A DNA stretch of 64,000 nt from an uncultured delta proteobacterium. GTDB taxonomy: Bacteria > Desulfobacterota > Binatia > UBA9968. The stretch covers positions 96,001 to 160,000 of the forward strand of contig CAVXEP010000016.1 in the NCBI GenBank assembly GCA_963760795.1, given 5' to 3'. Every line of letters begins with the position of its first letter. Position 1 is the first letter of the stretch. The position numbers and the translations under genes were made by a program. Below are positions 43,560 to 59,204 of this stretch, one piece after another. The notes below the pieces were generated by a model. That model worked only from the letters and a program-made list of their open reading frames with translations, was not told the DNA's origin and did not search any database.

Positions 43560-44019
43560 GTCCATGCGATACTGCTCGGCATTCACAGCCATTACTCCGG
43601 CGAGCTGCCGGCGCCAATCAAAGCGGTGATTGCTAATCATGAGAGCTTGGGCTCGTTGGTGAAACCGTTCGGCATTCCGTTTCACTACATAGGCCATAAG
43701 GATCCAGAGCGCCGAACACGAGAAGCGGGTCATGGAAGTGGTCGACACTTATGAACCTGAGTACATCGTGCTCGCCAAGTACATGTGAATCCTGACGCCC
43801 AGCTTCGTCGCGCGTTCCGACGGCGCATATGGTCACCGACGACCTCGACACCGGGCCGATCATCGCCCAAAACGTGATGCCGGTGAATCACACCTATACT
43901 GCCGCAGCGATGGTCTAGGCGGGCCGGGACGCCGAAAAAATCGCTCTGGCTAGAGCGTGCGATTAATGCTTGATGAGCGAGCCTTCTTGCATGGCAACCG
44001 CAGTGTGGTGTTTGAATAG
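43560..44019 (+). pseudogene. purU: Formyltetrahydrofolate deformylase pseudogene
   Basis: Fragments AVIANHESL..LVKPFGIPFHYI, IVLAKYM*ILTPSFV, AHMVTDDLDTGPIIAQ, MV*AGRDAEK and FLHGNRSVVFE; in-frame stops and loss of the INIHHSFLP segment and the N-terminus. Confidence 0.8.
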
Positions 44020-44123
44020 CTGCGCCTTGCCAGCCATTCTTATCACGCCCCACATTGACAAGTTTTCGGCCATCCTATAAATATTTTGCATAAATAATTT
44101 CATAACTTAGCTAGGAGGCCTAG

Positions 44124-45569
44124 ATGGCGAAGGATTTGCGAACTTTTATTGCCGATTGTGAGCGGCAATTGCCGGGCGAAGTGATTCACATTACCAAGGA
44201 AGTCAATCCGGCGAACTACGATGTGACCGCGATTATCAAGCATCTCGGCGCCCAGAAGAAATTTCCGATCATCATTTTCGACAATCCGCTAAATTTGAAC
44301 GGCAAAGTCGGGCCGATTAAACTGACCATGAACTGCGAGATCTCTCAGGGCAAGACGCAGATCGCCTTGGGCATGCCGCGTGATGCCACCCGGCCGCAGA
44401 TGGCGGAAAAATGTTTGGAGATGGAAGAGCATCGCGTGCCGCCATCGATCATCAGCCGGAAAGACGCGCCGATCAAACAGAACACCATGGTCGGCGATAA
44501 AGTCGATCTCTACCAGATTCCGATCATGCGCCACCACGAAATGGACGGCGGTCCGTATATCGTTCTTTCGACCATCACCAAAGACCGCAAGTCAGGGATC
44601 TACAACCTCTCGTACCACCGCATGGAAGTGAAATCGAAGAACTCGACGGCGCTCTACGCTTCGCCGCGCCATCTGTGGAAGATCTTCAAAGACTACGAAG
44701 AAAACAATTTGGAAATGCCGGTGGCCACCGTGTTGGGCCATCATCCGGCATTTCACATGGGCGCTTGTTACAGCGGCCCGTTTGAAGTGAGTGAGTACGA
44801 CGTGATCGGCGGCTACATGGGCGAACCGCTGCGCTTGGTCGCGTCAGAAACTTTCGGCGACGATCTGCTCATTCCCGCGGACGCCGAAGTTGTCATCGAA
44901 GGCGTGCTCAAACCGGGCGGCCGTGTGGTCGAAGGTCCCTTCGGCGAAGCGCCGGGCTATCTCGGGCCGCAGCGCTACACCACCTGCGTGCATTACGAAG
45001 TGCGTGCCATCAACTATCGCAACGGCGCCATGTATCAGTCGGTGATTACGCCGGAAGGCGATAAGCCGTGGATGGATCTGCCGCGCGAGGGTGCCTACCT
45101 GCGCCGCTGCCGCGAAGCCGTGCCCGGCGTCACCGCTGTCTGTAAGCAGGGCCGCCACGCCCATTACAATGTTTTCATCGCGATGAAGAAAATGTCCGAA
45201 GGCGATCCGGCACGCGCGGCGGCCGCCGCGCTGACCTTCGACCACACCAAGAATGTTTTCGTGTTCGATGAGGATATCGACGTTTTCAATCCCACCGACA
45301 TTCTCTGGGCGATCGCGACCCGGGTGCAGCCGCATCTCCAGGTCAATATTTTAAAGCCGCTGTTCCGCGGCAATTTCTTGGATCCGTCGCTGCGCGACGA
45401 GATCAAGACCTCCGGCATGATCGTCGATGCCACCAAACCGACTGACCGGCCATTCTCGCCGGTGTCGAAGTGCCCCGACGAAGCGATGGCGCGCATCAAA
45501 TTGGAAGATTACGTGCCGGGAGAAGTCTTGCAGCATATTCCAATGGACCGGACGACCTACTGGGCGTAG
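44124..45569 (+). CDS. UbiD-family (de)carboxylase 3 (close paralogue of 22045-23491)
   Basis: AGGAGG RBS; HHEMDGGPY, YNLSYHR, EGPFGE, WAIATRVQP, C-terminal DRTTYWA. Confidence 0.92.
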   Translation: MAKDLRTFIADCERQLPGEVIHITKEVNPANYDVTAIIKHLGAQKKFPIIIFDNPLNLNGKVGPIKLTMNCEISQGKTQIALGMPRDATRPQMAEKCLEMEEHRVPPSIISRKDAPIKQNTMVGDKVDLYQIPIMRHHEMDGGPYIVLSTITKDRKSGIYNLSYHRMEVKSKNSTALYASPRHLWKIFKDYEENNLEMPVATVLGHHPAFHMGACYSGPFEVSEYDVIGGYMGEPLRLVASETFGDDLLIPADAEVVIEGVLKPGGRVVEGPFGEAPGYLGPQRYTTCVHYEVRAINYRNGAMYQSVITPEGDKPWMDLPREGAYLRRCREAVPGVTAVCKQGRHAHYNVFIAMKKMSEGDPARAAAAALTFDHTKNVFVFDEDIDVFNPTDILWAIATRVQPHLQVNILKPLFRGNFLDPSLRDEIKTSGMIVDATKPTDRPFSPVSKCPDEAMARIKLEDYVPGEVLQHIPMDRTTYWA

Positions 45570-45759
45570 CAGAATGAGTGTTTAGCCACAAAGGGCACAA
45601 AGTCGGGGCCGGCGATACCGACCCCGACTAATTCAGGGATTGGCCGCAAAGAACGCATAGGACGCAAAAGGAATCTTGGGCACGCTGCGCGGATTGCCTA
45701 GTCGCTCAGATCCGCCAATCGAAAAGCTAAAATCCAAAATAGATAGAGAGAGGTAAATC

Positions 45760-45906
45760 ATGGGTCAGGCCGTTGAAATCACATGTCCAGATTGTAAGAA
45801 AATTTTTGTCGTCAACCCGCATATGCTGGGGTCGGGAATGAATTTCCATTGCCCCTTCTGTGATAAATATTTCCCTGAAAAAGACAGTCCTAAAATCCGC
45901 AAGTAA
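45760..45906 (+). CDS. Zinc-ribbon microprotein (48 aa)
   Basis: GAGAGG RBS; MGQAVEITCPDCKKIFVVNPHMLGSGMNFHCPFCDKYFPEKDSPKIRK with two CPxC knuckles. Confidence 0.75.
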   Translation: MGQAVEITCPDCKKIFVVNPHMLGSGMNFHCPFCDKYFPEKDSPKIRK

Positions 45907-45916
45907 CCTTGGTCTC

Positions 45917-45951
45917 AGGCCACGGTGACGTTCTCACCGTGGCCTTTTTTT
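45917..45951 (+). terminator. Intrinsic terminator
   Basis: AGGCCACGGTGA-CGTTC-TCACCGTGGCCT perfect 12-bp stem followed by a T-run. Confidence 0.8.
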
Positions 45952-45963
45952 CAGCTCACACCA

Positions 45964-48258
45964 ATGAAGACGAAGCAAATTCTAAAAGTCGTCGGTACCA
46001 ATGCACACCGCGTCGACGCCATCGAAAAAGTCAGCGGCAAGGCGATTTACACCAGCGATATCCAGCTGCCGGGCATGGCCCATGCGCGGATATTACGCAG
46101 CCCGGTCGCGCATGCACGGTTGGTCAGGGTCGACGCCTCCAAGGCGAAAGAATTTCCCGGCGTCATTGCGACCTTGACGCGGGATGACATCCAGGGCTTC
46201 AACTTCAAATATGGCGCGACCTACAAGGATCAATCCATCGTTGCCGTCGACAAGGTGCGCTATGTCGGCGATCCGGTGGCGGCAGTGTTGGCCGACACGC
46301 CGGAGATCGCCGAGCAGGCGCTGGAACTGATCGAAGTCGAATACGACGAGTTGGCTAAAGTCACCAACCTTGAAGAGGCCATCGCACCGGGCGCAATCCA
46401 AGTGCACGAGGGCGGCGTGGCGCGCGCCGAGTTGCGCGGTTCGACCTACGGCGCACCGGAGCGCTTTAGCGGCACCAACATTTGCTATTACCTGACCTTC
46501 GGCCGTGAAGAGGCCGAAAAAGGCTTCGCCAAAGCCGATCATATTTTCGAGGACACCTTCCGCTTTCAGAAGGTCCAGCATTTCTCCCTCGAAGCGCATA
46601 ACAACGTCGCCTACTATGACGGCGAGAAGCTGACTGTGTGGGCCTCCTGCCAAGATCCGTTTACGCTGCGCGATCATCTGTCGGCCATCTTTCGTCTGCC
46701 CTGCAACCGCATCCGCGTCATCGTCCCCTATGTCGGCGGCGGCTATGGCGGCAAGCTTTATGTCAAAGCCGAGCCGATTGCCGCAGCCCTGTCGTGGATG
46801 ACCCGGCGGCCGGTGAAGCTACAGCTGTCGATCAATGAGAGCTTCAAGACCGTCACGCGCCATCCAGCCAGGGTCACGGTTAAGACCGGCGTGACCAAGG
46901 ACGGCAAGCTCATCGCCCGCGACTGCCAGGTCTACATGGACACCGGTGCCTATGCCGACGCCGGACCGCGGGTTACGCAGAAGGCCGGCTATCGCGCCCT
47001 GGGACCGTACAGAATTCCTTATGCCAAAGTAGAAGCTTACGGCGTTTATACCAACACCGTGCCCGCCGGTGCCTTTCGCGGTTTCGGCGCGCTGCAAGTC
47101 ACCTGGGCCTATGAATCGCAGATGGACATGATCGCCGAGCGCCTGGGCCTCGATCCCCTGGAATTTCGCATCAAGAACTTACTCAAGAAGGGGGATCTCT
47201 ATACCGTCGGCGATACGCCGGTGGATTGCGACATGGAAGAGGGTCTGCGCAAAGTTGCCGACGCCATCAAGTGGAACGAGAAGAGTGCCAACCCCAACCG
47301 CGCTAAAGGTTTGAGCTGCTGCATAAAAGACGCCGGCGGTACCTACAAAGTTGCCGGTGCGACAGTCAAGATGTCGTCCGACGGTAGCGTCATGTTGCTC
47401 ACTGGCACCGTCGAAGCGGGGCAGGGGCCGCGCACGGCGCTAAGCCAGATCGTCGCCGAAGAACTCGCCATGTCGATGGATCAGATCGGCGTCGCCCAGC
47501 TCGACACCGATGTCACGCCCTATGATATTTCCACCAGCGCGAGCAGCTCCACAGTAGTCATGGGTACCGCGGTGCAGCGAGCCTCCCAGGACGCCAAGAA
47601 GCAGCTACTTCAGTGCGCCGCCAAAGTGCTGAAGCAAAAAACCGACACACTCTCACTCAAAGATGGCCAGGTCTGGACGAGTTCAGGCCAGAGTCTTTCC
47701 TTTAGTAAAGTGATTGTCGACTTTTTCGGTAGTAAAGCTGGAGAAATCATCGGTAAAGGACTTTACAAAGATAAACGTAGCGCGAAAGCGGTGCTGGGCT
47801 CGACAACGACTTTCTGGGAAGTGGGCTGGGGCGGCGTCGAAGTCGAGGTCGATCCGGAAACCGGCAGCGTGGAACTGCTCAACTACGTGTCCGCCTGCGA
47901 TGCCGGCAAGGCGATCAACCCCGAGCAGTGCGTCGGTCAGGACGAAGGGGCGGTGATGTTCGGCATCGGCCACACATTGATGGAAGAGATGATTTACGAG
48001 GATGGCCAATTGCTCAATGGCAACATGGTTGACTATCGCGTGCCGACGTTCCAGGACGTACCCGCGCAGTTGCATACGATCCTGATCGAAAACGGCAATG
48101 GCCCGGGCCCGTTCGGATCTAAAGGAATAGGTGAGGGTGGGCTTTTACCGGTCGCGTCGGCGATCGCCAACGCGGTTTCGCGCGCGGTCGGCGTGCGTAT
48201 TCAAGACTTGCCGCTCACACCGCCGAAGATTTGGCGGGCGATTCAAGCGAAAAACTAG
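45964..48258 (+). CDS. Xanthine dehydrogenase-family molybdopterin-binding large subunit
   Basis: VGGGYGGK, DTGAY, GAFRGFG, GQG, SASS, GSKGIGEGG. Confidence 0.92.
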   Translation: MKTKQILKVVGTNAHRVDAIEKVSGKAIYTSDIQLPGMAHARILRSPVAHARLVRVDASKAKEFPGVIATLTRDDIQGFNFKYGATYKDQSIVAVDKVRYVGDPVAAVLADTPEIAEQALELIEVEYDELAKVTNLEEAIAPGAIQVHEGGVARAELRGSTYGAPERFSGTNICYYLTFGREEAEKGFAKADHIFEDTFRFQKVQHFSLEAHNNVAYYDGEKLTVWASCQDPFTLRDHLSAIFRLPCNRIRVIVPYVGGGYGGKLYVKAEPIAAALSWMTRRPVKLQLSINESFKTVTRHPARVTVKTGVTKDGKLIARDCQVYMDTGAYADAGPRVTQKAGYRALGPYRIPYAKVEAYGVYTNTVPAGAFRGFGALQVTWAYESQMDMIAERLGLDPLEFRIKNLLKKGDLYTVGDTPVDCDMEEGLRKVADAIKWNEKSANPNRAKGLSCCIKDAGGTYKVAGATVKMSSDGSVMLLTGTVEAGQGPRTALSQIVAEELAMSMDQIGVAQLDTDVTPYDISTSASSSTVVMGTAVQRASQDAKKQLLQCAAKVLKQKTDTLSLKDGQVWTSSGQSLSFSKVIVDFFGSKAGEIIGKGLYKDKRSAKAVLGSTTTFWEVGWGGVEVEVDPETGSVELLNYVSACDAGKAINPEQCVGQDEGAVMFGIGHTLMEEMIYEDGQLLNGNMVDYRVPTFQDVPAQLHTILIENGNGPGPFGSKGIGEGGLLPVASAIANAVSRAVGVRIQDLPLTPPKIWRAIQAKN

Positions 48259-48376
48259 TCTAAAGTTTTCCTTAAGCTAATCTCAAGGCTTACTCGAATG
48301 CTGCGACGCAATTCCTGAGAGCCTGATGTGCGCCTCGCGGTGTTGCAACGCCTCTCCTTTCAGTGAGTAAAGATCC

Positions 48377-48515
48377 GTCCCGCGCACGTGGGAATCCAGG
48401 CATTATCGTCACCCCGGTGAAAACCGGGGTCCATCCCCCCCTCAACCTGGATACCGTTTTTCAACGGTATGACGAACATAGTCCGTCACCTGGATTCCGT
48501 TGTCGCGGGAATGAC
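48377..48515. repeat. Nested pair of GTCAxxCC...ATCCA / TGGAT...ATGAC palindromic elements
   Basis: Inner element 48408-48473 sits between the two arms of an outer element. Confidence 0.7.
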
Positions 48516-48585
48516 GGAACAGAGAGATTTCGCAGCCAATCGCTCCAATCAGAATCGGTTGGCTGATAGCCGATAGTTGTTTGAT

Positions 48586-49089
48586 TTACAGTTCCAGCAC
48601 CGCGCCGCATTTTTTGCAGGTAGCTAATTTCGGGTCGGCTTTAAGGGCGGCGGTGGCTTTGTTGACCGCATCGCCCGGATCATCGAAGCGCACATCGGTG
48701 GCGTAAAGATTCGTGCCGCATTTCTCGCAGGGCCAGATAAATCGGTCGATCTCCTCTTTGGACCGGGTTTTTTCTACCACATAGGTCCACGAACCATCGG
48801 CGCGGCGCGGCGAGTGCGGCGTGTTCCTCGGCATGAGAAAAATATCGCCGGCCTTGAGCACCGCCAGCTCATGCTTGTCGTCCTTCAAGTAATGCAGGTT
48901 TAGCTCCCCTTCGAGCTGATAAAATATCTCGTCCCCAGGGTTGATGTGATAGTCCTTGCGCCGGTTCGGCCCGCGCGTAACGAAGGCGATGAAATCAGAG
49001 TCCTGCCAAATCACCCGCCGCTGTCCCCAATCGCCGCGGTTATCGTCGATCCATTTCTGTAGGTTGAACGTCTGTAGGTGAGGAAACAT
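48586..49089 (-). CDS. 3-hydroxyanthranilate 3,4-dioxygenase-like cupin
   Basis: GPNRRKDYH, EIFYQLEG, PHSP, rubredoxin-like CEKC...CKKC. Confidence 0.8.
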   Translation of the reverse strand: MFPHLQTFNLQKWIDDNRGDWGQRRVIWQDSDFIAFVTRGPNRRKDYHINPGDEIFYQLEGELNLHYLKDDKHELAVLKAGDIFLMPRNTPHSPRRADGSWTYVVEKTRSKEEIDRFIWPCEKCGTNLYATDVRFDDPGDAVNKATAALKADPKLATCKKCGAVLEL

Positions 49090-49160
49090 AAAAACCTCCG
49101 GTGGCGCATGGCCAATATAGAATTGCACCGAAGCCGGAATCAAGCTAAATCATGCTGGTC

Positions 49161-49655
49161 ATGGTAATTCGCAGGAAACAGATCGAGATCGACAAGGGCA
49201 TCATCGGCGTGATCTCCGACACCCACGGCCTGGTCAGGCCTGAAGCCATGGCTGCGTTGAAGGGCGTGGAGCTGATCATTCACGGCGGCGATATCGGCAA
49301 GGCTGAAGTCCTAAAATCGCTAAGTCTGATGGCGCCTGTCTGCGCTATCCGTGGAAACAACGACCGTGATAGCTGGGCGAAGAAGCTGCCTGATGTGCTA
49401 AAGCTTCAGATCAATGGCGTCAAGTTTCAGGTCATTCATGATGTCAATGAGCTCGAAAGCGATCCCAGTGCCGCGGGAATTCATGCCGTCATCAGCGGTC
49501 ATTCCCACAAAGCGAGTGTCATCGAGCGCGATGGAGTCTTATTTATCAATCCCGGTAGTGCTGGGCCGAGAAGGTTCAAGCTGCCGGTGACTGTTGGCAA
49601 ATTGAGGCTACGGCATAAGATGGTCGCGGCTGAAATTATCGAATTAAGAATTTAG
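49161..49655 (+). CDS. YfcE-family metallophosphoesterase
   Basis: ISDTHG, HGGD, RGNND, GHSH, NPGS. Confidence 0.9.
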   Translation: MVIRRKQIEIDKGIIGVISDTHGLVRPEAMAALKGVELIIHGGDIGKAEVLKSLSLMAPVCAIRGNNDRDSWAKKLPDVLKLQINGVKFQVIHDVNELESDPSAAGIHAVISGHSHKASVIERDGVLFINPGSAGPRRFKLPVTVGKLRLRHKMVAAEIIELRI

Positions 49656-49666
49656 CATTGGATTCG

Positions 49667-49695
49667 TTGACAATCGGTTGATCGCACGTTAGAAA
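49667..49695 (+). promoter_or_regulatory. Putative sigma-70 promoter of the pyr operon
   Basis: TTGACA-N17-TAGAAA just upstream of the PyrR loop. Confidence 0.6.
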
Positions 49696-49703
49696 TTCTC
49701 ATA

Positions 49704-49812
49704 CCTTTTAAACCGATCCTGTGAGGTCGGCAAAGGGCCAAATGACGGAACTTAATTTAGAATATTGCTACGCTCAAAGACCCACTCGGTGATGCCGGGC
49801 GGGTCTTTTTTT
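49704..49812 (+). promoter_or_regulatory. PyrR-binding RNA leader (binding loop plus terminator)
   Basis: CCTTTTAAACCGATCCTGTGAGGTCGGCAAAGG matches the CUUUAA / UCCNGNGAGG PyrR consensus; hairpin AGACCC...GGGTCT plus T-run at 49776-49812. Confidence 0.9.
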
Positions 49813-50373
49813 ATGGCTGAAGAGAAGAAAATTTTACTCGAACGCGACGATATCGGCCGGATGGTCAGCCGGATGGCCCATGAGATCGTTGAGAAGGCCG
49901 CTACTCCAGCTGAGTTGGCTTTGATCGGCATTCGTTCGCGCGGGGTGCATCTGGCGCGGCGGATTGCTCGCAAGATCGGCGAGATTGCCAACGTCGATCC
50001 AGTGGTGGGGGTGATCGATGTTACGCCTTACCGGGATGACAAGTCGCAGGAGCGGCCGATGCCGGCAGTGGGGGCTTTCGAGGTGCAGGTCGCGGTCGAT
50101 GACCGGACGGTGGTGTTGGTCGACGATGTGATTTACCGGGGGCGGACGATTCGTGCGGCGATGGAGGCGGTGGAGCGCTTGGGGCAGCCGAAGCGAATTC
50201 TTGTCGCGGCGCTGATCGATCGCGGTGACCGTGAGCTGCCGATTCGTGCCGATATTGTCGGCAAGAATATTGAAGTTGGCGATCGCCAGCGGGTCAATGT
50301 CTTGCTCGATGAGGCCGACGGCACAGATCAAGTGATTCTGACGAATTGGCAGGGGAGAACCCGGACTGAATAG
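49813..50373 (+). CDS. pyrR: PyrR pyrimidine attenuation regulator
   Basis: [54 protein letters not shown]. Confidence 0.92.
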   Translation: MAEEKKILLERDDIGRMVSRMAHEIVEKAATPAELALIGIRSRGVHLARRIARKIGEIANVDPVVGVIDVTPYRDDKSQERPMPAVGAFEVQVAVDDRTVVLVDDVIYRGRTIRAAMEAVERLGQPKRILVAALIDRGDRELPIRADIVGKNIEVGDRQRVNVLLDEADGTDQVILTNWQGRTRTE

Positions 50374-50385
50374 CCGCATATGCCC

Positions 50386-50444
50386 GTGATCCCGAGCGAA
50401 TGCGAGGGATCTAAGAGAGATTTCTCCCAGGGGTCGAAATGACA
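50386..50444. repeat. Intergenic palindromic repeat between pyrR and pyrB
   Basis: GTGATCCCGAGCGAATGCGAGGGATCT...AGATTTCTCCCAGGGGTCGAAATGAC; does not resemble a PyrR loop. Confidence 0.55.
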
Positions 50445-50503
50445 ACAATTCCAACCTTGGCGTGGGATCGACGGTTAACGAGTAGCCCTAGAAGTAAATC
50501 ACA

Positions 50504-52456
50504 ATGCGCTGCCTGATTTCCATTGCCGACCTGACCAACGATGAGATCGAGGAGATCTTTGCGCTGGCCGATAGCGCCGACAAGCTGCGCGCCGACAGGG
50601 TCGGCGCCGGGCAGATCATGGCGACGTTGTTCTACGAACCGAGCACGCGCACTCGGCTGTCGTTCGAATCGGCCATGCAGCGCCTCGGCGGCTCGGTGAT
50701 CTCCTGCTCGGATATGAAAGCTTCCTCGACGGCCAAAGGCGAGACCGTGGCCGACACGGCCAAGGTGGTGTCGAGCTACGCCGATGTTTTGGTCGTGCGT
50801 CATTATTGGGACGGCGCGGTGCAGGCGATGGCCGAGCACGCCGATGTGCCGGTGATCAACGCCGGCGACGGCGGTCACGAGCATCCGACCCAGACGCTGT
50901 GCGATCTTTATACGCTGCGCAAGGAGAAGGGCGATCTCAAAGGCTTGACGGTAGTCGTGTGCGGCGATCTCAAGAACGGCCGGACGATCCATTCTTTGGT
51001 TTACGCGCTGGCGCGCTTCGGCGCTAACGTAGTGACCCTGGCCGCTAACGGCATGGAGCTGCCGCAGTATGTGATCGAGCGGTTGGAGCGCGAGTACGAT
51101 TACGGCTTTGCGCCGGTGGCGTCGGGAGACTTGAATTCCGTCGTTACCGAAACCGACGCTTTATATTTAACCCCGAAGCAACCGCATCAGCTGGCGCTCT
51201 ACACCCAGGTGGACAAGGTCATCCAATCCCAGCTGAGCACCCTGGCGACCGGCCTGCGCTATGACGCTTTTTACATGACCCGGAAACAGAAAGAGCGGAT
51301 GAAAGAGGGCACCGCCAACGGCAACTATCCGACCATCGGTCCGGAGTTTCTCCAGGAAAAGCGTTTTCAGGACACCGTGGTGATGCATCCGCTGCCGCGT
51401 GTCGATGAACTGTCGCCGGAGCTCGACAAGGACCGGCGCGGCATCTATTTCAAACAGGCCGCTTACGGTGTGCCGGTGCGCATGGCGCTGCTCGAATTTC
51501 TGTTCCGGCGCAATCGCGCGCAGCAGCGTGCGACGAATATGGCCAACCGTTCCTATCGTAGCCCTGAACCCATCGGCCCCAAGTGCCATAATGCCAACTG
51601 CATTACGGTGAAAGAGCCGGCATCGACGCAGCGGCGCTTTCGCATCTATTTCGCCGAGGATATAGGCGCGCTGATTCTCGGCTGCGACTACTGCGATCAT
51701 CGCTTCAAAGTTGACTACGTCGGCAATATTAAAGCCAAACGCTATTCGTCCTTCGACGCCACGCTCAGCGAGACGTTGCGCGATTGGTGGGACAAGGGCG
51801 AGCTCGCCTTGTTCGACTCGATCAAAGAAGCCGAAGAGTTGGGGTACGAGCCGACGAGAAGTAGCGCGCAACGGATACTCATGTCCGAGACTGAGATCGA
51901 GACTGCGCTTGCCGAGATGAGCCGGCAGATTGTGCGCGACTGCCGCGATCCCGACCGGTTGTTGATTCTCGGCGTGCGCAGTGTTGGCTCGCTCCTGGCC
52001 CAACGCATTGCCAATGCAATCGCAGCGCAGCGCAACCGCAGACCGGAGCTGGGCGAGATCGAAATCTACGGCTCCGGCGATGAACTCCGGCGCATCGGCC
52101 CCAGCGATCCAGATCTCGGACCGCCCAGTCTGAAAGATCGCGAAGTGGTTCTAGTCGACGACGTGATTTTTACCGGCCGCACGGTGAAAAGCGCGTTGAG
52201 CATCATATTTCGCTCCGGCCGGCCACAGTCGGTGCGCTTAGCCGTGCTTGTCGACCGCGGCCACCGCGAGGTGCCGGTGAAGCCTAATTACGTCGGTAAA
52301 AATATTCCGAGCTCTGAAAAAGACCGCGTGCGCGTGCGCTTGCGCGGCGAAGATAGTGAGGCGGCCGACCGCGTAGTAATCTATTCAATTATGAGTCCCG
52401 CGGTGAGTGCGCAGCCAGCATCAACCTCCAGCCGGGACAAGGCGGCGAACCGATAA
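50504..52456 (+). CDS. pyrB: Aspartate carbamoyltransferase fused to a PyrI-like Zn domain and a PyrR-like PRTase domain
   Basis: [30 protein letters not shown]; then CHNANCIT...CDYC; then [28 protein letters not shown], all in one 650-aa ORF. Confidence 0.9.
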
Positions 52457-52460
52457 TTTC

Positions 52461-53624
52461 ATGAAAGCGATTTTAGCCTTAGCGGACGGCAAATTTTTTA
52501 GCGGTGTAGGCTTCGGCGCCGAAGGCGAAGCCGTTGGCGAAGTGGTTTTCAACACCAGCATGACCGGCTACCAAGAGATTCTCACCGACCCGTCTTATGA
52601 AGGCCAGTTGGTGGCGATGACCTATCCACAGATCGGTAACGTCGGGGTTAATCTTGAAGACGTCGAGTCGCGCCGGCCGTTCATGCGCGGCTTCATCGTT
52701 AAAGATTACACCGCCGAGCCGAGCAACTGGCGCGCCAGCCAGCCGCTGCATGAATATATGCAGGCCAATGGCATTGTCGGCATCTACGGCATCGATACCC
52801 GCGCGCTGGTGCGCCACCTGCGCGATCACGGAGCGCAAGACGGCATTATCTCGACAGGAGCGGCGAGTGCTGAAGAGTTGGCCGCCAAAGCCAAAGCTTC
52901 CCCGGGCCTTGTCGGCCAAGATCTGGTTAAAAATGTTACATGCCACGAGCCGTACGACTGGAATGAAGGCATGTGGCGACTAGTGGGCGGCTACAAGCGG
53001 CGCGATGGCGGCAGCGCTGCCAAGCGCAGCCGCAAGGGCAGCTTCACCGCGCCAAAATACTTCGTCATCGCCTACGACTATGGCATCAAATATAACATCC
53101 TGCGCAATCTCGCCGAGTCGGGCTGCCAGGTGCGCGTGGTGCCGGCGTCGATGCCGGCGAGCGAGGTGCTGGCGCTGAATCCCGATGGAATCTTTCTTTC
53201 CAACGGTCCCGGCGATCCCGACGCGGTTCCCTATGCGAAAGAAAACGTCCAACAGCTGATTGGCAAGAAACCGATCTTCGGCATTTGCCTGGGGCATCAA
53301 ATATTAGGTTTGGCCCTGGGCGGCAACACTTACAAACTCAAGTTCGGCCATCATGGCGGCAACCAGCCGGTGATGGATCTGACCACGCGCAAAGTCGAGA
53401 TCACGTCGCAGAATCATGGCTTCGCCGTCGATGCCGATTCGCTGAGCGGTGCCGCGCAACTGACTCACTTAAATCTCAACGACAACACGGTGGAAGGATT
53501 GGCGCATCGCGAGCTGCCGATCTTTTCCGTGCAGTATCATCCCGAGTCCTCGCCCGGCCCCCATGACGCGAACTATTTGTTTAAACGCTTTACCGACCTG
53601 ATGGCGCAGCACCGAGGCTCGTAG
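52461..53624 (+). CDS. carA: Carbamoyl-phosphate synthase small subunit
   Basis: [40 protein letters not shown]. Confidence 0.97.
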
Positions 53625-53629
53625 CATCC

Positions 53630-56869
<3,240 letters not shown>

Positions 56870-56990
56870 CGGCGATGCAGCGCTTCGTCAGTGTCCTGGA
56901 ATTACTTGTGAACTCGGATAATTTAGGGGTCGGTTCGCGTGTGTATCCTGTCGTCAATAGTGACCATCCCTGCGGTTCGATAGGCTATCG

Positions 56991-59204
56991 ATGGCGATCT
57001 TAAAGCCAGTGGCAGAAGCCGCCAAACTGGTCACGACGAGTTCACAGCCCCGTGCCAATGCGCGCGAATGCTTGCGAGCTCTCGCGACCTCGATTCAGTC
57101 CCTCAAGGGCGTCGGTCCCAAACGGGCGGCGCAACTCGAAGCCAGCGGGCTCGCCACCGTCGAAGACATTCTCTATCACTTGCCGTTTCGCTTTGAGGAC
57201 CGCCGCCAGTTGAAGAAAATCAACCAAGCAGCGCTGGGCCAAGAGGAGAGCTTTACCGGTCAGCTGGTGCTGCTGCAAAACCGGTTCAACCCGCGCCGGC
57301 GCAGTCAGATGCTGTCGGCGGTGCTGCGCGACGACACCGGCACAATTGAATTGATGTGGTATCGGGCGCCAGGTTACTTGGCCAACGGACTGGCTCAAGG
57401 GCAAAATCTACTGGTTCATGGCAAGGTCGAGCAGGGCGCGCAGGCGCGCCTGCGTATCGTCCATCCCGACTTTGAAGTATTGGAGCCCGGTGAAGAGAGC
57501 GCCCATGCGCGTATCTTGCCAGTGTATCTGCGGCCGGGCGGCATGCCGATGTCATTCATGCGCAAGCTGGCGGCGCAAGCGCTCGAGCAATACGCGCAGT
57601 ATCTGCCGCCGGGACTACCGAGCAGCGTAGCGAGCCGCATGCAGCTGGTCGCCATCCCGGAAGCGCTACGCCGATTACACCAGCCGTCGCTGGATACCAG
57701 TGTAAACGCCCTGAACGATGCCAGCTCGCCGGCGCACCGCAGCGTGATCTTCGACGAGCTATTTTATCTGCAACTGGGGTTGGGGTTGCGCAAGCGCTCG
57801 CGCACGCAGAGCCGCGGCCAGCCGGTTCATTTGACTGACGGTAAACTAGTTCAGCGCATGCGCGAATTGTTGCCGTTCGAACTCACCGGCGCGCAGGATC
57901 GGGTTTTTGGCGAGATCGCCGCCGACATGGCGGGCGAGCAGCCGATGCAACGCTTGGTTCAAGGCGATGTCGGTTCGGGCAAGACCATGGTGGCATGGTT
58001 GGCGTCGCTGCGGACCATCGAGCAAGGCTATCAAGCGCTCTGGATGGCGCCCACGGAAATTCTCGCCGAGCAGCACTTTCGCGGTTTGTCGGGCTACGCC
58101 AAGACTTTGGGAGTTACGGCGGCGCTTCTCACGGCGGCGACGACGGCAAAAGAGCGCAAGGAATTGCTGCCGCGCATCGAGCGCGGCGAAGTGCAGTTTC
58201 TCGTCGGCACCCACGCGTTGATTCAAGAAGATATCCATGCGCCGCGCATGGGTCTGGGCGTCGTTGACGAACAGCACCGCTTCGGCGTGGCGCAGCGTTT
58301 GTCGTTGCGCCAACTGGTGGCCGGCAAGGATTCTCTGTCTTCGACCAGCCATGAGCCGCATATGCTGTTGATGAGCGCGACGCCGATCCCGCGCAGTCTG
58401 GCGATGGTGCTGTACGGCGACATGGAGGTTTCCTTCGTCGATGCCATGCCGCCGGGGCGCACACCGGTGCAAACCAAAGTGTTCAACGAACGGGAGCGCA
58501 AGCAGGTTTACACGATGGTTCTCGACCAATTGAAAAAAGGCCATCAAGCCTTTGTCGTCCTGCCGCTGGTCGAAGCCTCCGAACAGCTGCAACAAGTTAA
58601 GGACGCCACCCAGATGGCGGAAAAAATGCGCCAAACTTTGTTCAAAGACTTCGGCATCGGCCTGGTGCATGGCCGCATGAAAGCGGACGAGCGCGACCAA
58701 ACCATGCGCGCCTTTCGCGACGGCAAGTTGGGGATTCTCGTCGCTACCACCGTCATCGAGGTCGGCATCGACATTGCCAACGCCACGGTCATGGTCATCG
58801 AGCATGCCGAGCGCTTCGGCTTGTCGCAGCTCCATCAACTACGCGGCCGGGTCGGGCGCGGCCAGGCGCCGGGCTATTGTTTGTTGGTCAATCGCGGCAC
58901 CGGCGGTGCCGTCGCCGCCGAAAGATTGCGCGTCATGGCCAACGAGAAAGATGGTTTTAAGATCGCCGAAGCGGATTTGAAATTACGCGGTCCCGGCGAA
59001 CTTCTTGGCACGCGACAGTCGGGTTTGGCCGATTTCCGTTTGGCCAATCTGATCCGCGATACCCAGTTGCTCATCGCCGCGCGTCAAGAAGCCTTGGCAT
59101 GGTTGGAAAAGGACCCGCAGCTCAAAAACAAAGACTCCGCGGGCATGCGACAGGTTCTCAAACATCGCTGGGGCAAGCGATTGCAGTTGGGAGCGGTAGG
59201 GTAA
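56991..59204 (+). CDS. recG: ATP-dependent DNA helicase RecG
   Basis: QGDVGSGKT, DEQHRFG, MSATPIPR, QLHQLRGRVGRG, DGF.IAE.DL..RGPG. Confidence 0.96.
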   Translation: MAILKPVAEAAKLVTTSSQPRANARECLRALATSIQSLKGVGPKRAAQLEASGLATVEDILYHLPFRFEDRRQLKKINQAALGQEESFTGQLVLLQNRFNPRRRSQMLSAVLRDDTGTIELMWYRAPGYLANGLAQGQNLLVHGKVEQGAQARLRIVHPDFEVLEPGEESAHARILPVYLRPGGMPMSFMRKLAAQALEQYAQYLPPGLPSSVASRMQLVAIPEALRRLHQPSLDTSVNALNDASSPAHRSVIFDELFYLQLGLGLRKRSRTQSRGQPVHLTDGKLVQRMRELLPFELTGAQDRVFGEIAADMAGEQPMQRLVQGDVGSGKTMVAWLASLRTIEQGYQALWMAPTEILAEQHFRGLSGYAKTLGVTAALLTAATTAKERKELLPRIERGEVQFLVGTHALIQEDIHAPRMGLGVVDEQHRFGVAQRLSLRQLVAGKDSLSSTSHEPHMLLMSATPIPRSLAMVLYGDMEVSFVDAMPPGRTPVQTKVFNERERKQVYTMVLDQLKKGHQAFVVLPLVEASEQLQQVKDATQMAEKMRQTLFKDFGIGLVHGRMKADERDQTMRAFRDGKLGILVATTVIEVGIDIANATVMVIEHAERFGLSQLHQLRGRVGRGQAPGYCLLVNRGTGGAVAAERLRVMANEKDGFKIAEADLKLRGPGELLGTRQSGLADFRLANLIRDTQLLIAARQEALAWLEKDPQLKNKDSAGMRQVLKHRWGKRLQLGAVG

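Follow-up and report, generated by a model that had tools for sequence, protein, structure and literature searches.

The stretch of DNA analysed here, which we call the window, comprises 64,000 nucleotides (nt) of contig CAVXEP010000016.1 (positions 96,001 to 160,000 of the forward strand, assembly GCA_963760795.1) from an uncultured delta proteobacterium of the class Binatia. It carries a pyrimidine operon in which a single open reading frame (ORF), at window positions 50504..52456 on the forward strand, encodes 650 amino acids (aa) with no internal stop codon in its translation. The encoded protein is a lineage-specific form of aspartate carbamoyltransferase (ATCase), found in certain uncultured bacteria of soil, that unites in one chain a catalytic part, the zinc domain of the regulatory subunit PyrI, a small adaptor module and a diverged PyrR-type phosphoribosyltransferase (PRTase). 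Its parts are given below with the evidence for each, where AF2 stands for AlphaFold2, pLDDT for the predicted local distance difference test score of its models, and PDB chains for chains of solved structures.

50504..52456, + strand: whole fusion ORF, 650 aa, stop codon included
50504..51508, + strand: ATCase catalytic chain, residues 1-335 (Pfam and NCBIfam matches, catalytic motifs intact)
51155..51271, + strand: insertion or quasi-duplication in the aspartate domain, residues 218-256 (Pfam and NCBIfam matches in two stretches, low pLDDT)
51509..51577, + strand: variable tether from catalytic chain to zinc domain, residues 336-358 (low pLDDT, variable alignment)
51578..51718, + strand: zinc domain of the PyrI_C type, residues 359-405 (Pfam PF02748, profile, Foldseek)
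51719..51871, + strand: conserved module of about 50 aa, residues 406-456 (conservation, AF2 model)
51872..52393, + strand: diverged PyrR-type PRTase domain, residues 457-630 (NCBIfam PyrR, PDB PyrR chains, dimer model)
52394..52456, + strand: variable C-terminal tail and stop codon (pLDDT below 50 at residues 634-650, variable in the alignment)

Domain architecture of the fusion

Profile searches assign each of the named parts to a known family. In Pfam, OTCace_N (PF02729) covers residues 3-139 with 168.7 bits, OTCace (PF00185) scores 72.7 bits split over two stretches (the best at 257-332), PyrI_C (PF02748) covers residues 360-404 with 27.6 bits in the whole protein and 31.1 bits when that part is searched alone (gathering score 23.4), and Pribosyltran (PF00156) covers residues 464-602 with 70.8 bits. 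Among NCBIfam models, residues 3-333 pass two PyrB equivalogs (TIGR00670, 291.1 against a cut-off of 236.95; NF002032, 275.9 against 263), and residues 455-627 pass the PyrR equivalog NF003549 with 149.6 bits (cut-off 138), the only one of five PyrR models to be passed. The original prediction, made from the sequence of the window, had placed an ATCase, a four-cysteine PyrI-type segment and a PyrR part in this ORF. All three prove homologous to the families it named, and its coordinates and the strings CHNANCIT and CDYC are correct, with the cysteines at nt 51584-51694. Two features go beyond it: the module of about 50 aa and, just before the fusion, a canonical pyrR that stands alone.

The tether that precedes the zinc domain has a pLDDT below 50 at residues 340-348, and both its sequence and its length vary in an alignment of 32 fusion-family sequences, which is also the basis of our statements on motif invariance.

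The catalytic chain

The motifs STRTR, R99-H100, H127-P128-Q130, R160-T161, R260-Q262 and HPLPR, which we take to bind substrate as in the E. coli enzyme, are invariant in 32 of 32 aligned sequences. In Foldseek the model of the catalytic part is closest to the catalytic chains of M. jannaschii (template modelling (TM) score 0.85), P. abyssi, Arabidopsis and E. coli. By sequence, the catalytic part scores higher against the PDB chains of M. jannaschii (245.7 bits), P. abyssi (244.2) and E. coli (about 210) than against 2at2 (135.9) and 3d6n (112). Since the former three are presumably PyrI-partnered enzymes and the latter two PyrI-less types, these scores indicate that the catalytic chain derives from the PyrI-partnered ATCase lineage.

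An insertion of about 35 aa in the aspartate domain resembles a partial repeat of the TRxQ strand (DALYLTPKQ..., then DAFYMTRKQ...). Both OTCace and TIGR00670 align in two stretches here, and pLDDT falls below 50 at residues 227-249. The first copy of this quasi-repeat contains the invariant P224, and the second contains the invariant R260 and Q262. A related protein of another genome (G036), which consists of a PyrB part and the zinc domain only, is without most of the insertion.

The zinc domain, the adjoining module and the missing allosteric domain

The four cysteines of the zinc domain (C361, C366, C394 and C397) are invariant in family alignments. A profile built from the family matched the PyrI chains of E. 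coli, Moritella, M. jannaschii and Sulfolobus with E-values from 5e-6 to 2.5e-3; the match on E. coli PyrI (E = 5e-6) spans residues 105-150 and brings the four cysteines of the two proteins into register. In this alignment C109, N111, N113, C114, E119, C138, Y140 and C141 of E. coli correspond to C361, N363, N365, C366, E371, C394, Y396 and C397 of the fusion, and we take N111, N113 and Y140 to be residues of the catalytic-regulatory interface in E. coli. The AF2 model of residues 345-456 (pLDDT 82.5) agrees with this assignment: its top 19 PDB matches in Foldseek are all PyrI chains, over 43-44 columns at a root-mean-square deviation of 1.4-2.3 Å, with E-values of only 0.05-0.2, modest because the zinc domain is short.

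The fusion ORF is the sole occurrence of PyrI_C in the assembly of the window (35 contigs, 88.9% complete). No match to the allosteric domain of PyrI (PF01948) was obtained anywhere in that assembly or in five of five related genomes, by a search that returned matches in 7 of 14 control genomes. The last helix of the ATCase part and the first cysteine are only about 25 residues apart, which leaves no space in the fusion for a PyrI allosteric domain. The lack of this domain, which the original prediction had claimed, thus extends to the genome that encodes the fusion and to five of its relatives.

Directly after the zinc domain, residues 406-456 form a module predicted as strand-strand-helix-strand-helix, for the most part at a pLDDT of about 88-91, which drops to 79 and then 37 at the C-terminal end. 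Y414, W428, L434, F437, S439, A443, G447 and P450 are conserved in the family alignments. The module has no Pfam match at E-values up to 10, no fold match in the PDB (the Foldseek matches are confined to the zinc part) and no usable match in the ESM Atlas. A likeness to the end of Ada-type zinc domains was considered, and no support for it was found. The same module occurs in a protein of another genome (G006) that has no PyrR domain.

Reality and distribution of the fusion

The architecture recurs in other genomes. Among the best 120 protein clusters listed, which are 74-95% identical and 640-665 aa long, all carry PF02729, PF00185 and PF00156, and PF02748 is on record in 88. Where these clusters are named, they are annotated solely as 'aspartate carbamoyltransferase catalytic subunit', and we found no description of an ATCase-PyrR or PyrB-Zn-PyrR protein in Creative Commons papers of PMC or in bioRxiv. 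The fusion sequences are public, yet their annotation does not reveal the architecture.

A scan of one genome per species gave 129 confirmed loci, and 80 were kept for analysis. Nearly all of the 80 come from metagenome-assembled genomes that bear the label Candidatus Binatia, Binataceae, Binatus, delta proteobacterium or Deltaproteobacteria, and six bear different ones: Verrucomicrobiia (two), Chloroflexota, Limnocylindrales, Udaeobacter and Acidiferrales. The original prediction had pointed to relatives as the place to look for stop codons between the domains and for the same architecture. The ATCase, zinc and PyrR parts lie in one stop-free frame in 74 of the 80 loci, four are cut by contig ends, and two (L101 and L103) are frameshifted inside the ATCase part, away from the junctions, and may hold sequencing errors or be real pseudogenes. 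Moreover, a contig of 1650 nt from soil DNA spans window positions 51380-52500, including both junctions, without a gap and differing by 21 substitutions. The fusion is both genuine and old.

Contigs from RNA libraries also cover parts of the gene: one of 683 nt (X17) runs over 51298-51980 without gaps, and pieces of another (X15) cover 51417-51568 and 51684-51842. These contigs are 88-95% alike to the window, so they come from relatives, and they are no evidence of expression, since DNA carry-over is possible. None of the sequencing runs contains at least half of the sampled words, and stretches left uncovered by the RNA-library runs are uninformative. Two candidates for a divided form were rejected. 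An apparently split gene in one genome (G174) is a contig break, both pieces stopping at contig ends and overlapping in sequence, and the apparent stand-alone Zn-PyrR chains of 313-327 aa (P0122 and P0126) are fragments that start with the last helix of the catalytic chain.

Across 401 genomes sampled from the phylum, full-length fusions are found in the class of the window only. Within that class the signature of zinc domain plus module occurs in 59 of 201 genomes (a count that includes the unpublished genome G474) and is confined to 5 of 20 families: f1 (11/13), f113 (2/2), f8 (1/1), f6 (25/25) and f116 (19/19), with none in the other 15.

Outside the class, shorter relatives are found. One genome (G036) encodes a PyrB-Zn protein of 422 aa, followed by carA and without a PyrR domain (L021, 1459-2724, - strand). 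Another (G006) encodes a PyrB-Zn-module protein, likewise without PyrR and followed by pyrC (L019, 1513-2868, - strand; 452 aa from its ATG, 468 aa from the listed TTG), and two further clusters of 459 and 461 aa have this same form. PF01948 is absent from both genomes. The existence of PyrB-Zn forms without PyrR implies that the loss of the allosteric domain and the gain of PyrR were separate steps, at least two in number.

The fused PyrR-type domain

Solved PyrR chains match residues 455-627 at E = 1.7e-32 in a PDB sequence search, and the fused domain retains both the loop for phosphoribosyl pyrophosphate (PRPP), V551-T560, and the segment D584-R588. The fused sequences are only 33% identical to one another, and across them D552, D553, V554, G558, T560, D584-R588, P591, G598 and K599 are at least 90% conserved.

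Other positions have changed. We compared 30 fused domains with 83 representatives of free PyrR, in which 52 columns are at least 75% conserved. The fused family deviates at 15 of these columns, conservatively at 10 and radically at 5. Of the radical changes, R to E471 and E to R478 fall in the first helix, R to V494 in the loop that follows the first strand, and Y to S524 and R to G525 in the YRDD loop. At the column of E471, 66 of the 83 free proteins have R, and the Y and R of the YRDD loop are present in 63 and 79 of the 83. The stand-alone PyrR of the window has the canonical residue at all five radically changed positions.

A quick tree places the 32 fused PyrR domains in one clade (98 in the Shimodaira-Hasegawa-like approximate likelihood ratio test, SH-aLRT), separate from 24 of the 25 free PyrR copies that these genomes encode, and the fused and free subtrees branch similarly. 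A single fused clade whose branching mirrors that of free PyrR suggests that the fusion arose once, long ago, and was then inherited vertically. The fused domains do not branch from within the stand-alone clade of their own genomes, and their sister is a representative on a long branch (support 86). The tree thus neither shows nor excludes that the fused domain arose by duplication of the neighbouring pyrR.

Operon context and the free PyrR paralogues

The genes and features around the fusion in the window are the following.

49701..49812, + strand: PyrR-binding leader RNA, then a terminator-like hairpin with a U7 run, before the pyrR start (Rfam RF00515, fold)
49813..50373, + strand: stand-alone pyrR (NF003549, 192.3 bits against 138; ORF listed from TTG 49765, likely start ATG 49813)
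52461..53624, + strand: carA (Pfam CPSase_sm_chain and GATase; likely ATG 4 nt past the fusion stop, ORF listed from GTG 52407)
53630..56869, + strand: carB, 1079 aa (position after carA, translation with the look of a carbamoyl-phosphate synthase)

The leader matches RF00515 at 49701-49812 with 55.4 bits (gathering score 54). It folds into a 5' hairpin, a GC-rich 3' hairpin and U7, with the AUG (ATG 49813) next (z = -2.76), and so looks like a transcription attenuator of the Bacillus type in which the putative terminator abuts the start codon. In relatives the PyrR RNA site reaches the Rfam gathering score at 3 of 18 loci, and a relaxed PyrR-loop motif lies on the + strand upstream of pyrR in 16 of 80. 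The Bacillus loop consensus RTCCAGAGAGG matches no fusion locus; its one match among 105 loci (L023) is unrelated.

The stand-alone pyrR ends 130 nt before the fusion and lies directly upstream of it in 71 of the 71 loci with room for it. Its presence marks the fused copy as a diverged paralogue. With a canonical pyrR retained next door the RNA-binding regulator is kept, which leaves the fused copy free to change function. It could be argued that the fused domain acts on expression from its place on the ATCase, by still binding the pyr leader or some other RNA. It does score above the cut-off of the NCBIfam PyrR equivalog, and it keeps R588 and K599, which align with residues that we take to contribute to RNA binding in PyrR. 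However, R, H and R in the N-terminal helix of free PyrR are replaced by E471, R474 and D479 in the fused copy while the free PyrR of the window is canonical, an Rfam search found no second PyrR RNA site in 44000-58000 at E-values up to 1, and a canonical PyrR is at hand to serve the one site that is there. We regard a tethered RNA binder as extremely unlikely.

The invariable adjacency of the two genes raises another possibility, a heterodimer between the fused domain and the stand-alone PyrR. ATCase would then titrate the attenuator or be regulated by it, and enzyme level would be linked to operon expression. PyrR proteins do dimerise, the quick tree gave mirrored topologies for free and fused copies, and the segment in which we predict the dimer interface (GRT...DRGHRE.P...GK; see below) is the part most alike between the two. 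Nevertheless, adjacency alone says little, as pyrB commonly follows pyrR in bacterial genomes, and the homodimer itself is predicted with confidence. Such a tethered partnership therefore seems very unlikely.

Downstream, carA follows the fusion in 55 of the 73 related loci with room for it, and a tblastn search with the carB ORF found carB downstream in most related loci. In a group of loci labelled Binataceae or Binatus (L086-L105) the 800 nt that follow the fusion do not contain carA, and carB lies further on. The gene pyrC is outside the operon, as originally noted: its best match is on another contig of the same assembly, C13. That contig also encodes a third PyrR paralogue, a free protein of 183 aa at C13:95205-95708 (L003, 1477-2028, + strand), 18 kb from pyrC. 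This paralogue keeps the YRDD loop and scores 25.8 bits as a uracil phosphoribosyltransferase (UPRTase) against a cut-off of 27. Since no canonical upp reaches the Pfam cut-off of 27 in this 88.9% complete assembly, the best match (24.8 bits) being this same protein, it may be the UPRTase of the cell.

The want of a canonical upp might also be met by the fused domain itself. It is possible that the fusion is a bifunctional enzyme whose PyrR-type domain works as a UPRTase, with a de novo and a salvage step joined in one chain and no allosteric role. In keeping with this, the VDDVxxTGRT loop and the DRGHRE.P segment are at least 90% conserved, and PyrR of B. subtilis is described as one of the two UPRTases of that organism (PMC7430163). 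Against it stand the losses in the fused domain of the conserved R after the first strand (V494 in 18 of 30) and of the Y and R of the YRDD loop (S524, G525), whereas two free PyrR paralogues of the same genome have these motifs and could supply the activity. Moreover, a salvage activity gives no reason for a PyrI zinc domain to stand between two enzymes. We judge a bifunctional enzyme to be distinctly unlikely.

Upstream of the pyr leader lie two divergently arranged genes with no apparent link to the pyr cluster, one for a cupin resembling 3-hydroxyanthranilate 3,4-dioxygenase (48586-49143, - strand; PF06052, E = 2.4e-31) and one for a phosphoesterase of the Metallophos_2 family (49152-49655, + strand; E = 3.2e-32).

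A predicted dimer through the PyrR domain

Two copies of residues 345-640 were modelled together. The interaction prediction score from aligned errors (ipSAE) was 0.54 in three runs, as against 0.00 for the best of three controls. The runs shared at least 88% of their contacts, and the partner had a pLDDT of at least 79. The predicted interface is symmetric (550, 561-569, 574-579 and 588-595) and lies wholly within the PyrR domain. The model supports homodimerisation through that domain, which the cross-linking of trimers proposed in the original prediction would require.

Discussion

The fusion raises the question of what a PyrR-type domain does at the end of an ATCase chain. The reading that we favour, at slightly better than even chances, is that the fused PyrR is a regulatory dimer that senses a nucleotide or PRPP and replaces the allosteric domain of PyrI. 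The zinc domain would dock on the catalytic trimer as it does in E. coli ATCase. The PyrR domains would pair, and three such dimers would join two catalytic trimers in a homohexamer, the counterpart of the 2(c3):3(r2) holoenzyme. Uridine nucleotides would occupy the PRTase site and, like those that bind PyrR, be counteracted by guanosine nucleotides or PRPP, and ligand binding there would shift ATCase activity through the zinc domain. For PyrR itself, a ligand logic is described in which UMP or UTP is opposed by GMP or GTP, the mono- or triphosphates of uridine and guanosine (PMC7430163). Control in these bacteria may thus show a division of labour, with the free PyrR acting at the level of the genes and the tethered copy at the level of the enzyme.

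The original prediction had a PyrR domain taking the place of the allosteric domain. The allosteric domain is indeed absent and PyrR is present, but PyrR sits C-terminal to the zinc domain, is joined to it through the module of about 50 aa, and was gained in a step separate from the loss, so that a simple exchange in place does not describe what happened.

Several points weigh against the sensing role that we favour. The order of domains is one, as the PyrI allosteric domain is N-terminal to the zinc domain and PyrR is C-terminal. The PyrB-Zn proteins without PyrR are another: they imply that the zinc domain has some PyrR-independent role, and they show that the enzyme can dispense with the PyrR domain. 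The nucleotide site is eroded in places, with SGWT in the PRPP loop in place of TGRT at four loci (L015, L016 and L018 of family f6, and L017) and VKNFR in place of the DRGHR motif in one protein (P0152). The ligand site may therefore be decaying in parts of the family, and a purely structural role is favoured in those sublineages. As for the changed residues, those of the first helix of PyrR are reported to be part of its RNA-binding surface (Savacool and Switzer 2002 and the papers on PyrR structures), and the residues altered here are reportedly RNA-binding or catalytic in PyrR. Finally, the dimer model may have passed in part through memory of solved PyrR dimers, and the calibration of the ipSAE mark, which 20 of 30 solved homodimers and 1 of 23 solved single chains reached, holds only roughly here, since the run used an alignment that we built ourselves.

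Much of this would suit a scaffold, in which the PyrR domain is a dimerisation handle that holds two trimers together and senses no ligand. An inactive dihydroorotase is such a scaffold in the class A ATCase of Pseudomonas. The dimer model, with its interface inside the PyrR domain, is what a scaffold would give, and the eroded sites and the PyrR-less forms fit it as well. The pattern of conservation tells the two readings apart only in part. Some of the conserved stretch 584-595 sits in the predicted interface, and its conservation there fits both. The best conserved stretch, however, is the PRPP and nucleotide loop with its neighbours (D552, D553, V554, G558 and T560), which would be superfluous in a mere handle. 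We consider a pure scaffold unlikely for the family as a whole.

ATCase is a textbook case of allosteric regulation, and the bacterial enzymes are classed by what the catalytic trimer is joined to. The fusion is closest to class B, represented by the PyrB6-PyrI6 enzyme of E. coli, with which it shares the catalytic lineage, a homologous zinc domain and, as predicted here, a dimerising regulatory part. It differs in that the PF01948 domain is missing, the catalytic chain carries the zinc domain at its C-terminal end in the same polypeptide, and the additional module and a PRTase-fold domain come after the zinc domain, so that the sensor is C-terminal instead of N-terminal. The fusion fails one defining feature of class B, the allosteric domain. 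Catalytic and regulatory parts are also joined in one polypeptide in the PyrB-PyrI proteins of the Thermotoga type (NF009916). Those proteins keep the whole of PyrI including its allosteric domain, unlike the fusion described here, which scores 94.2 bits with that model against a cut-off of 800, over residues 40-197 of the catalytic part only, and is a different protein.

The class A enzyme of Pseudomonas offers a precedent for trimers tied together by a recruited and diverged protein of the pyrimidine pathway instead of PyrI. There, however, the partner has another fold and is a separate polypeptide, and there is no zinc domain, whereas the catalytic chain of the fusion is nearer to the PyrI-partnered type. 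With the PyrR proteins of B. subtilis, B. caldolyticus, M. tuberculosis and Thermus the fused domain has in common the PRTase fold, the PRPP loop and a (here predicted) homodimer. Unlike them it is not free-standing, carries five radical changes, forms its own clade and has a canonical PyrR with its RNA site beside it. A PRTase fold serving as a sensor of PRPP or nucleotides rather than as a catalyst is familiar from PurR of B. subtilis and GfcR of haloarchaea. These proteins control DNA binding, whereas the PRTase-fold domain of the fusion is attached to an enzyme by way of a PyrI zinc domain. GfcR is also a weak NCBIfam match of the free PyrR of the window.

It is tempting to go one step further and to see in the fusion a fourth structural class of ATCase: a homohexamer in which dimers of a PyrR paralogue fill the allosteric role of PyrI, the zinc adaptor is kept, and uridine and guanosine nucleotides or PRPP are read in the manner of PyrR, so that one sensor fold would serve both the operon and its first committed enzyme. 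We put this forward tentatively, at somewhat less than even chances. On this proposal, the family would be a natural experiment in re-wiring a textbook allosteric machine with a different sensor.

In summary, this family of ATCases retains the zinc domain as its coupling element and has probably swapped the sensor for an unrelated fold taken from the RNA-binding regulator of its own pathway. If this is true, it shows how an allosteric machine can exchange its input domain, and the effectors are predicted to differ from the cytidine, uridine and adenosine triphosphates (CTP, UTP and ATP) of the E. coli enzyme. Moreover, the PyrB-Zn, PyrB-Zn-module and PyrB-Zn-module-PyrR forms would then be natural intermediates in which such an exchange could be tested step by step.

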